Origin: Podarcis vaucheri
Lineage: Eukaryota
Length of the DNA: 64,000 nt
Reading direction: 5' to 3' (one strand)
Assembly: GCA_965113315.1 (NCBI GenBank)
Contig: OZ220372.1
Every line of letters begins with the position of its first letter. Within the stretch, counting starts at the first letter, position 1. Under the pieces are notes generated by a model. The model saw only the letters and a program-made list of their open reading frames with translations. It was not told where the DNA came from and searched no databases. The position numbers were made by a program, and so were the translations under genes. Positions 336-11,151 of the stretch are shown here, piece by piece.

Positions 336-493
336 CCAGACACCCCGACTCTTACACGGGAAGACACCCGAAGACACCAAAACCTGCATATATATATATA
401 TATATATATATGCTTTCGTAGATTTTCACGGGTACAGGAATGCAGGTTTTGGTGTCTTCGGGTGTCTTCCCGTGTAAGAGTCGGGGTGTCTGT

Positions 494-531
494 GCGACGT
501 TTCGACGAGGTCTCACTCGTCATCTTCAGGC
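494..531 (-). ncRNA. Hammerhead-like motif (copy B)
   Basis: Reverse complement of the motif at 298-335. Confidence 0.75.
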
Positions 532-763
532 TGGTGCTTTCGGCTTCTTGTTACTGGAACAGAGCAGAGTCTGGTGTTTGAGTTCCTATAAATACTGTTG
601 AGGGGTGTGGTGTATAGCCTCCAACGTTCTGGGCAGAGAGGAAGTTCCTAGATTAGTGTGCCTTTTCTTCTTTTGTTCCTTAATTACTTGAGGGATATCT
701 TGGGTGATTTCATGAGTGATATTCTGAATACCACTGGGTGGGTCATTAAGTGTAGATTAGTTG

Positions 764-1394
764 CTAAAGCTTTCGTGTCTTGACCTCTTGAGCTTGTGAA
801 GAGTTTTTCTGAGAAGATGGCTGTGCTGCATTTAGTTGTGCTCTGGCTTGGCTTCGTGTATAGGGGCGAGCTGTGGTTTTGTGCCTTGTGCCAGCCAGAT
901 CTGTGTAGGGATTGCAGGGGGGTGCAGCATCCGGAGGTGCCACTATAGTTTGGCTACTGGATGGAGTCTGTAATATGTCTGTGGAGAGGGTCTGGGTTTG
1001 GGTCTGGTGTGGTTGATTGGTGACGGCGTTCTGTGTGCCTCTGGTTCTGGTGTCGGTTTTTGTGGGGAGGGCTAATTTCCAGATGTCTGGCAGGCGGGAC
1101 GTGTCGTCACGCTTGTTCATGTTGTGAGGGTGTTTCTCTATCTCGATGGCTTCCATGATTATTCTCTTGTGGTGATGTTCCATGTTAAAGAGCAATTTGG
1201 AATCTGCAAAATTAATTTCGTGTCCTGTTTCTTTCATGTGTTGGAAAAGAGAGGAAGTTTTTTCTTCTTTTTTGACGGCATTCTTGTGTTCTGCGATACG
1301 TGCATTTATTCGTCTGTTTGTTTGTCCAATGTACGTGGCTGGGCAGACTTTGCAGGGTATTTCATAGACCCCTTGGTTTTCCAGCTGGATTTTG
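764..1394 (-). CDS. Mirror copy of the PLE GIY-YIG ORF fragment
   Basis: C-terminal part of track ORF 764..1696; reverse complement of 1426-2056. Confidence 0.88.
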
Positions 1395-1414
1395 GTTTTC
1401 CAGCTGGATTTTGA

Positions 1415-4117: not shown

Positions 4118-5574
4118 ATGTAGAGACTGAGGATCCTTTGCTATAATTATTGGTCAACCACATTCCAGGCCCAGGTCACAAGGCAAAGTTTGCACTCTTT
4201 CCCCACTTTTGTTGTTTCCTGGTTTCGCTTTTACAGCCCATATGGGATTAGCTCTATGTTCCTGATGTGCTTGGGCTATCATTTCAGGAAGAATCCTATT
4301 CAAAGAACTGATAGCTGACTGGGTAGTCTAAGGGCATCAGCTGTCTACTCTGCCTACTATTCCTCATTGAATCAAAAGTTTTAAACAGCGGCCCTCTCTG
4401 TGTCTACAGAAAATGTTTTGTTAAGTTAGATTTGGACAAGCATCTCACTCCTAGACATGTGCATATGCTGCAAATACTCTCAGGTTGCTTCCAGATGGCC
4501 TGTTCTCGATGAATGTTCATCCTGATCCGCTTGCAAAGTTTGAGGGAAAGTGATATATGTCTCCTATTTATTAAGCATTCATTCTGATTTGTTTGTGGGG
4601 ATGTTATATTATTATTGTTATTATTTTTTATTATTTTTATTATTTTTATTATTATTATATACCATCCTATACCCGCATTTATACTTTCCAGTGCATTTCC
4701 CCATCACTTTCTGTATGGCAAAAGTTCATTAAAAAAAAAAGTGCTGAACCTCCTTCAATGCCAGTAAATTTTAGCTGTGCGATTAGAACCCCATAGCAAA
4801 AACAGTGACAGTTGGGAAGCAACATCAGTAGCTTGCCCAGATGCTGTTAAACTGTCATCTTAGGCTGTGTAAGTCCATTCCAAATTACAAAAGATGTGAA
4901 AGCTTGCATTGACATGGAATGCTTTACGGTGGCTGCAATGCCTTTTGACTGGAGTGCATGCTTTTTTGCAATGCCTTTTGACTGCAGTGTAAATTATCCC
5001 ATATCCCACAGTCCCTCCACCTAACTTGGCACAGTGCAACTCTTAGTCTACAGCAGTGTGATGATGATGGAGGCTATTGCCAACACAGCTGCAGAGTTCT
5101 GTGTTAATAGGACATCACCGCTTGCAATGCCATTGCAGTTTCATAGCTCTTGATTATGTGCCTGTGCAGTGCCCTATCCTACACTAGGCTGTTTAAATTG
5201 GCTGTGGAAACCCTGGCAAGAGATCTTGCTTCATAATGTGAGCTCAGTGTACTTTGGCAGTGAAAAAAGTGGTGGAAAAGAAAAGCAAATTGATAGAGGG
5301 TAAGTCTATGAATGGCCAAGATCGGGCATCTGGCAAGACCTGCTTTTCAGCAAGTGGGTGAGGGATAGCAAAAGGCAGGTTGAGGTTGGTAGAAAGCATC
5401 CCGTTTGTCCTCATGGACGAGCCTCTAGTGCTGGTTGGCTACTGTGGGAAACAGGATGCTGGACTGGAATATGGAACTTTTGTTGTTGAACTGCAAGTCC
5501 CATCCACCCCAGTAGGTATGGCCAATCTCTCTGCATTCCTGTGTTGCATCCCTGTATTAGACTGCTCTGGCAGT

Positions 5575-5755
5575 TACAGATAGGTAGCCGTGTTGGTCTG
5601 CCATAGTCAAAATAAAAAAATTCCTTCCAGTAGCACCTTAAAGACCAACTAAGTTAGTTCTTGGTATGAGCTTTCGTGTGCATGCACACGAAAGCTCATA
5701 CCAAGAACTAACTTAGTTGGTCTTTAAGGTGCTACTGGAAGGAATTTTTTTATTT
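5575..5755. mobile_element. Fold-back pLTR fragment of a second Penelope-like family
   Basis: Perfect palindrome 5608-5757 (centre 5682/5683), 33-nt unpaired left tail, 12-bp TSD tgctctggcagt (5563-5574, 5756-5767). Contains the hammerhead 3' half cacacGAAAGCTC. Confidence 0.8.
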
Positions 5756-6409
5756 TGCTCTGGCAGTGCTCATCTTCTGTTCCCCAGCTTGCAGCATGGC
5801 TAATCTCAATACATTCAATACTCAATACATGTATTAGGTCATTCTACCTAATGTTTAACTTCAGCATGCCACGTCTACCTAAATTGTTTCTCGGCCAATC
5901 CTCAGAAAGCATGACAAATCTTTGGCCATTCTCTTCTTTCCTCAATCTTTTGAAAGTATTTGTAGACCCTTGAGGTATTGTACTCTATCCTCCTTAATCT
6001 TTTTGTCCCTTTGGGCTAAGCATACGCAGGTTCCTTCAGTTGTAACAGACTTAAAAACAAGATTTAAAATATATATACTTAGTGGAAGCACACAAACAAA
6101 TTCAAACATTTGGTGATCATGCAAACAAGCTGTCTTATCTCATGGATAGCCCCTTTGCTGTTACCCTGACAGCTGTGACTCAGCAGTGTCGGCCATTTTG
6201 GGGGTGAGTGAGACATAGGTTGTTGAGGTCCCCATCCCTAATGAAAATAGTCTCCAACCACTGTCAAATCACAAGTCACATCTGTCTCCATTGACTGATC
6301 CATAAAAATCACAGACCTGCTGCTTTGCAACACTCATCACAGCTTAAAATCATGGATCCAATGTACGGTCCTCATGAATCCTCATATTTTTGTACAAGGC
6401 ATCACCACA

Positions 6410-10534: not shown

Positions 10535-10598
<64 letters not shown>
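10535..10598. repeat. Compound microsatellite (TG)n(TA)n
   Basis: Directly visible. Confidence 0.95.
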
Positions 10599-10599
<1 letters not shown>

Positions 10600-10681
10600 G
10601 CTTTCGTAGATTTTCACGGGTACAGGAATGTAGGTTTTGGTGTCTTCGGGTGTCTTCCCGTGTAAGAGTCGGGGTGTCTGG

Positions 10682-10719
10682 GCGACGTTTCGACGAGGTC
10701 TCACTCGTCATCTTCAGGC
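10682..10719 (-). ncRNA. Hammerhead-like motif (second locus, left arm)
   Basis: Reverse complement of the same 38-mer. Confidence 0.75.
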
Positions 10720-10785
10720 TGGTGCTTTCGGCTTCTTGTTACTGGAACAGAGCTCTGTTCCAGTAACAAGAAGCCGAAAGCACCA

Positions 10786-10823
10786 GCCTGAAGATGACGA
10801 GTGAGACCTCGTCGAAACGTCGC
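10786..10823 (+). ncRNA. Hammerhead-like motif (second locus, right arm)
   Basis: Same 38-mer. Confidence 0.75.
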
Positions 10824-10870
10824 CCAGACACCCCGACTCTTACACGGGAAGACACCCGAAGACACCAAAA

Positions 10871-10916
<46 letters not shown>

Positions 10917-10919
<3 letters not shown>

Positions 10920-11099
10920 TTTCGTAGATTTTCACGGGTACAGGAATGCAGGTTTTGGTGTCTTCGGGTGTCTTCCCGTGTAAGAGTCGGGGTGTCTGTG
11001 CGACGTTTCGACGAGGTCTCAGAGACCTCGTCGAAACGTCGAAACGTCGCACAGACACCCCGACTCTTACACGGGAAGACACCCGAAGACACCAAAACC

Positions 11100-11103
<4 letters not shown>
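10917..11103. mobile_element. Mini fold-back PLE pLTR unit 2
   Basis: Centre at 11021 (gtctc-a-gagac), 8-bp duplication gaaacgtc in the right arm, followed by (TA)n 11104-11148. Confidence 0.9.

Positions 11104-11151
<48 letters not shown>

Follow-up and report, generated by a model that had tools for sequence, protein, structure and literature searches.

The locus lies in a 64,000-nucleotide stretch of the Podarcis vaucheri genome, which we call the window and whose positions are counted from its first base. A microsatellite at 10535-11148 contains two fold-back units, separated and flanked by (TA)n, just as the initial annotation had described them. Both derive from a Penelope-like element (PLE). 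Numbering of element positions runs backwards from the final base of the full tail, which is -1, and our reference is a natural copy at window 412-1399, minus strand, from a first array of the same family. The features are:

1-2671: first array of this PLE family; comprises three head-to-head units and includes the GIY-YIG coding end
10535-10575: (TG)20, left part of the target microsatellite
10575-10599: (TA)12, following (TG)20, left part of the target microsatellite
10600-10873: unit 1, antisense arm plus sense arm, head-to-head
10600-10753, minus strand: unit 1 left arm, antisense copy of element -1 to -154, full tail
10711-10717, minus strand: hammerhead core of the unit 1 left arm, one complete motif
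10752-10873, plus strand: right arm of unit 1, clipped, a sense copy that starts at -154 and reaches about -33
10788-10794, plus strand: hammerhead core of the unit 1 right arm
10794, plus strand: ORF start codon in the unit 1 right arm
10873-10917: (TA)22 spacer, target microsatellite between the two units
10918-11104: unit 2, antisense arm plus sense arm, head-to-head
10918-11021, minus strand: unit 2 left arm, antisense copy of -1 to -104, full tail, -82A allele
11022-11104, plus strand: unit 2 right arm, sense copy of -103 to -29, clipped
11103-11148: (AT)23, right part of the target microsatellite

Unit 1 measures 274 bp and not 276 bp as first given, while unit 2 spans 185-187 bp, a range set by a shared AT, which includes the earlier figure of 187 bp. 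The two arms of unit 1, of which the left carries the variants -82C and -32A, overlap by 2 nt at the centre to form a 125-bp fold-back with no spacer. Its RNA fold has z = -35.7, and none of 200 shuffles was equally stable. The right arm of unit 2 contains an 8-nt tandem duplication (11033-11048). The hammerhead that had been attributed to both units has its core once per strand in unit 1, where cleavage of the right arm is predicted from the hammerhead consensus after position 10821, but unit 2 has no complete motif, because its arms stop at -104 and -103 and the CUGAAGA core lies at -118 to -112. Likewise, the units encode no protein, as had been stated, although the 3' 112 nt of a full arm correspond to ORF codons 1-37. 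Both units share one polarity, with the full tail on the left and the clipped end on the right, as had been noted; no meaning needs to be read into this, since the census described below splits into 16 units of one orientation and 20 of the other, as in a coin toss. The alleles of the two units differ at -82 and -32, and they therefore come from different source copies, in line with the independent events proposed initially, the (TA)22 spacer parting two independent insertions.

To the ends of copies with an ORF, the arms show 98-100% identity; they terminate at -1 or near -29 and adjoin (TA)n. Of the two origins first suggested for the units, extreme 5' truncation of an inserted element, here a PLE, is supported, and we regard their PLE origin as practically certain. 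Within the element, a TATA-like box begins at -183 and the hammerhead core occupies -118 to -112; the ORF opens with its start codon at -112, and -29 is where the clipped end lies. One copy (locus L116), with a partial repeat upstream, carries a 906-aa ORF with a reverse transcriptase (RT) domain (RVT_1, E = 6.7e-15) and a C-terminal match to GIY-YIG that is weak (E = 3e-4; 21.4 bits, slightly short of the 22.6 cutoff), and a CCHH motif, with its two Cys and two His, is visible in the parent element. With a single ORF containing RT and C-terminal GIY-YIG, the parent is an EN+ PLE; a search against solved structures returned distant RTs only. Tandem copies have a period of 2,961 bp, and the pseudo-LTRs (pLTRs) occur both in tandem and inverted, with a tail of 28-30 nt that corresponds to the optional 30-40 bp tail of PLEs. 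Minimal hammerheads with a palindromic 15.2-16.2 region are described in PMC4209133, and, judged by its sequence, the pLTR carries a minimal type I motif of that description, with the core, an extra nucleotide before stem II, a 6-bp stem II and a palindromic 15.2-16.2. An Rfam scan of the window gave no match at the gathering score. The nearest model for comparison is Poseidon_Ac (PAc), a Penelope/Poseidon-clade PLE of Anolis carolinensis (Frangieh et al. 2024, PMC11167929). As in PAc, the ATG lies at hammerhead stem II; upstream of the GIY motif we found no Cys cluster. The element is young and very abundant, and its layout suggests a PLE of the Penelope/Poseidon type rather than of the Neptune clade.

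An exact 22-mer near the tail, taken as a marker of arms, occurs 13,033 times in the 1.6-Gb genome. The initial annotation had read two loci only 8 kb apart as a sign of very high copy number or of local hopping, and of these the former stands and the latter is not needed. In a sample of 41 loci from 12.2 Mb of C1, 3 of 40 gaps were 10 kb or shorter, as against about 1.3 expected, so that copy number alone can suffice for the spacing.

We read by hand the 41 head-to-head units in C1:0-12.2 Mb, a census that leaves aside solo arms, ORF tandems and two complex inserts and simplifies four composite units. A full arm is paired with a clipped arm in 36 of the 41 units, where 50% would be expected (p = 4e-7). 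Both arms are 157 nt or shorter in 17 units, both are longer in 22, and 2 are mixed; in 11 of the 41 both arms end at -145 to -157. An automated parse of 113 units, biased towards minis and possibly containing some duplicates, gave the same pairing in 54 of the 61 short units and in 32 of the 38 long ones. In this automated set the two arms of a unit differ at 51 of 22,655 sites (0.23%), compared with 1.1% between units, and at -82 they carry the same allele in 98 of 105 units and discordant alleles in 7. Such sharing of alleles between arms is compatible with one RNA molecule or with two RNAs from one active locus.

Perfect palindromes within microsatellites are difficult to assemble, and a fold-back artefact of the assembly or the library therefore has to be considered. 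The ends are, however, fixed (-1, -29, -154), the tails are asymmetric, the arms have private differences, and the structure recurs at hundreds of loci on many contigs. Further, in raw RNA reads of a related organism (AT)n is attached to the element at both known 3' ends, the same two as in the genome. We consider an artefact extremely unlikely.

Shared alleles would also follow if one strand snapped back and was copied, the fold-back self-priming proposed by Arkhipova et al. 2013 (PMC3846280). Templated patches, which we found at some junctions, would be in keeping with this mechanism, and units 1 and 2, both nested, would on their own be compatible with it. In 19 of 25 unequal full-plus-clipped units, however, the clipped arm is the longer one and the arms are non-nested, the shorter arm having tail sequence that is missing from the longer, so that the longer arm in its present form cannot have been its template. 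The published mechanism, in which an antisense template primes itself, also fits the sense-strand signature described below poorly, since it leaves the TATA-like box, the sharp end and the extra G unexplained. Finally, PAc extends both target strands in vitro (PMC11167929). Taken together, self-priming seems to us very improbable.

The distribution of arm ends points to one particular base. Among 8,788 arms that span -154 to -133, 729 break exactly at -154, the native next base being absent, while over the next ten positions 568 of 8,059 arms are lost, or 57 per base with substitutions included; the excess of breaks at -154 over the neighbouring bases is 12.8-fold. The partners of these -154 arms include another -154 arm, arms of -97 to -153, long arms and unrelated DNA, and some end on bare (TA)n or jump to another template position, in three loci leaving exactly -154 (L035, L043 and L172). 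The TATA-like box lies 29 nt upstream. Further, 26 solo arms end at -154 on AT-rich DNA; read on the cDNA strand, they continue with C in 9 cases, G in none, A in 9 and T in 8 (sign test for C against G, p = 0.004). As a control we used breaks at -107 to -137 (the first 100 of 198 matches, giving 22 loci, from which 6 with a short second arm were dropped), where a single extra C occurs in 1 of the 16 loci listed, as against 9 of 26 at -154 (Fisher p = 0.06), a weak excess. Among the matches listed, the internal solo breaks end mostly on A or T, which are able to pair with the target. An extra C on the cDNA corresponds to an extra G on the sense strand and is the trace expected of a copied 5' cap, as known from CAGE and from retrocopies. 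The extra G at -154 is thus likely to be a copied cap and, with the sharp end, the extra C and the TATA-like box 29 nt upstream, the simplest explanation of -154 is the capped 5' end of an RNA.

Alternatively, -154 could be a hotspot of sequence or structure, at which the RT stalls or self-complementary ends are joined, and not an RNA start. The commonest junction is indeed a 2-nt self-complementary overlap. Our prediction that most ORF-bearing copies would end at -154 failed: among the 30 best-scoring matches only 2 do (L198 and L204), whereas 28 pass through it, 8 of them extending past -983 and 20 stopping between -176 and -954. Nor was a read-level pile-up of start sites at -154 seen in the RNA reads of the related organism, whose copies are mostly 90-99% alike. 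Against a hotspot, the 26 solo arms reach -154 with no self-complementary partner, 9 of them with the extra C; internal solo breaks mostly have an A or T that could pair with the target; template jumps leave the very same end; the TATA-like box is suitably placed; and the sense arm folds no better than its shuffles (z = -0.03). We hold a hotspot to be improbable, although less so than the other alternatives discussed here. Only 2 of 30 ORF-running copies stop at -154, and a single-unit RNA with its start there could not serve as template for the others unless a jump occurs. Long cDNAs would then have to derive from RNA multimers or from jumping at the run-off point, and multimeric transcripts or homologous transfer must be common. 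The Drosophila Penelope promoter is internal and TATA-less (PMC2377424), so a TATA reading would not be general for these elements; by analogy with that internal promoter, transcription of a -154 arm is a possibility.

Several individual copies deserve description. The copy L204 is seen in locus L225 (L225:854-7359, G000:C10:127,820,353-127,826,858). It is full-length, with its 5' terminus precisely at -154, and has, ahead of the ORF, 15 further identical head-to-tail units of 228 bp (-141 to +87). Each unit spans the entire hammerhead motif, giving a retrozyme-like array inside a PLE that may stem from rolling-circle copying, from repeated jumping, from a tandem expansion at a later stage or from an assembly error. 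L198 is seen in locus L226 (L226:386-1649, G000:C17:42,531,885-42,533,148), where two ORF-bearing copies lie head-to-head with 5' ends at -154 and -146, and their junction is one that recurs in several minis. Long arms also break recurrently at about -730 to -739 (L007, L010, L013, L018, L062) and at about -506 (L014, L015); they could reflect additional RNA ends, stalling sites or targets of jumps.

The initial annotation had proposed a genome-wide census of fold centres, in which many copies with an identical centre would indicate an amplifying non-autonomous element and scattered centres would indicate truncation products. A pattern for the centre of unit 1 gave 228 + 228 matches in the genome. 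The first 100 of these 456 contain 43 perfect and 15 near-perfect junctions, which by extrapolation corresponds to about 260 loci folding at -154, of which about 190-200, roughly three quarters, have a junction identical to that of unit 1. Near the centre of unit 2, on the other hand, only 3 loci fold, each with a different junction, and the junction of unit 2 is unique in the genome. The two units thus give opposite answers, and the either-or form of the census is misleading: a shared centre does exist, but it is a general end point of cDNAs and not the mark of a clonal family.

The shared centre is also what would be expected if unit 1 belonged to an amplifying non-autonomous mini-element, whose stubs are transcribed, possibly by means of a promoter inside one arm, and mobilised in trans, the palindrome being rebuilt at every insertion. 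The 11 census units with both arms ending at -145 to -157 can be added in its favour, as can the internal position that Penelope promoters may have (PMC2377424) and the existence of non-autonomous PLE derivatives (PMC8557442; bioRxiv 10.64898/2026.07.22.740005). Haplotypes speak against it. In the loci sampled, -82C is similarly frequent in mini and long arms (34/114 and 49/130, p = 0.22). The variant -55T, found there in 4 of 114 mini arms and in 0 of 130 long arms, was considered as mini-specific and rejected, since genome-wide it occurs in 22 long and 6 mini units. A rare three-site haplotype is present in 75 arms genome-wide, of which, from their coordinates, 56 form 28 head-to-head pairs, 6 with mini spacing and 22 longer; two pairs of matches are spaced by one tandem period. 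In all 12 pairs examined both arms carry this haplotype, and neighbouring units in the same microsatellite carry others. The rare haplotype is found in mini and long pairs alike, and one source therefore yields both products.

In the samples examined, we found neither a haplotype lineage private to the minis nor a uniform junction: junctions and combinations of tails vary. Further, the stubs have neither the TATA-like box nor the stretch of ORF that PAc needs for binding (PMC11167929), and a read-through transcript would be a 125-bp hairpin. An amplifying mini-element is accordingly unlikely, and the units very probably formed independently and are not members of a clonal family. The suggestion of a retrozyme- or MITE-like non-autonomous derivative is not supported by these comparisons. 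MITEs have the equal terminal inverted repeats of a DNA transposon and a fixed target duplication. The ends here are unequal, with a one-sided tail, and the origin is a retroelement whose parent encodes RT and no transposase. As for retrozymes, the non-LTR kind is reportedly treated by Cervera and de la Pena (2020, PMC7229834). Non-LTR retrozymes resemble our stubs in being short, non-coding, derived from PLE pLTRs and hammerhead-bearing, but a retrozyme is by definition a tandem of at least two units in head-to-tail order, each with its own complete hammerhead (bioRxiv 10.64898/2026.07.22.740005), whereas here the arms are head-to-head and unit 2 has no core.

The reading that we prefer, with a probability of roughly 0.7, is that the two arms are twin-primed cDNAs from one RNA, that -154 is the capped 5' end of this RNA and that unit 1 is a run-off product. 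The element protein would prime reverse transcription on both cut strands of the target from one RNA, and, as the arm data and the PAc biochemistry suggest, the two cDNAs would start 28 nt apart. The cDNA with the clipped, upstream start would lead and tend to be longer. Transcription would start at -154, below the TATA-like box at -183, and the cap would sometimes be copied as an extra base. When priming takes place in the first repeat copy of the RNA, both cDNAs would run off at -154; the 3' ends of the cDNAs would then be linked, either by microhomology of 0-2 nt or by short patches of templated sequence, and the palindrome would result. Unit 1 would be such a run-off or 'strong-stop' product, its length of 154 nt marking the capped 5' end of the RNA, and unit 2 would come from the same reaction with the joining at an earlier stage. 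Units that lie next to each other in one microsatellite would be separate insertions. In themselves, units 1 and 2 are likely to be inert insertion stubs of a known element class, dead ends, and the interest lies in the genome-wide pattern rather than in these two units.

This twin-priming reading can be set against what is known of PAc (PMC11167929). PAc cuts and extends both target strands, begins synthesis at two neighbouring internal sites and has been predicted to act as a dimer. It resembles the present element in its ORF with RT and C-terminal GIY-YIG, in the start codon at hammerhead stem II, in its AT-rich target and in the use of both strands, a likeness of layout. Its starts lie at +111-118 from the ATG, where ours lie at +112 (full tail) and +84, and in both cases they define the optional tail. 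Our start sites adjoin AT or AAATAT, which could pair with a (TA)n primer, whereas initiation by PAc is described as non-homologous. PAc requires the first 172 nt of the ORF as template, and the stubs do not contain the ORF stretch up to +172. In the sections available the PAc paper, whose in vitro work ends at priming, describes no head-to-head stubs, no fixed 5' run-off point, no cap-like base and no pairing of full with clipped arms. Beside this, we observed twice a joint from +68 past the tail (+180 from the ATG) back to the start of the repeat, once in the genome (L035:1169-1668) and once in 3 RNA reads of the related organism (X22 on L116, 3885 to 3680); its position is close to the +172 template limit of PAc.

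Inverted pLTRs, one-sided tails, palindromic junctions and microsatellite targets have been described for PLEs (PMC3846280, PMC8557442), and the published palindromic insertions are like ours in having a 5'-truncated inverted copy, a tail at one end, a palindrome at the junction and a microsatellite target. What sets ours apart is that nothing but the repeat is left in either arm and that a single base is the end point of 8% of arms. Two further systems offer partial parallels. In LINE-1 twin priming, two primers on one RNA give an inversion, while here both primers would sit at fixed sites 28 nt apart, so that the arms overlap as inverted repeats. Retroviral minus-strand strong-stop DNA is a short cDNA that ends at the 5' end of the RNA; the run-off product proposed here would instead be target-primed and fixed in the genome. 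Our search of the openly accessible literature found neither a run-off or strong-stop class of PLE insertion nor a rule of one full and one clipped arm with shared alleles.

The inverted repeats and one-sided tails of PLEs were called undefined by Craig et al. 2021 (PMC8557442). In this young family, thousands of near-identical insertions make three rules readable: a full arm is paired with a clipped arm, both arms carry the same template variant, and there is a sharp one-base end with a cap-like G. These rules predict a transcription start and a twin-priming geometry. They also warn annotators that hundreds of palindromes of the same length are not necessarily a MITE family. A broader proposal, which we advance tentatively and think rather doubtful, is that the stubs are a genomic record of PLE integration, in which a protein dimer would prime two cDNAs on one capped RNA at a distance of 28 nt, about a quarter of the head-to-head insertions would be integrated strong-stop DNA, and long copies would arise by LTR-like strong-stop transfer to a downstream repeat of the RNA. 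If this is true, strong-stop transfer regenerates a promoter-bearing pseudo-LTR, and a single scheme would account for the pLTR of Penelope-like elements as well as for their tail and inverted repeats.

At L109:5622-7900 (G000:C1:1,584,122-1,586,399), arms only 80-92% identical to the reference lie beside young arms, indicating, from their divergence, a possible second related subfamily or chimeras. Within the window itself, a fold-back mini of a different repeat family occupies 5573-5757, outside (TA)n, with 75-bp arms at 5608-5682 and 5683-5757. Only its left arm has additional sequence, some 35 bases, and there seems to be a target duplication of 9-10 bp; we take this mini to resemble the end of another hammerhead-bearing reptile PLE.
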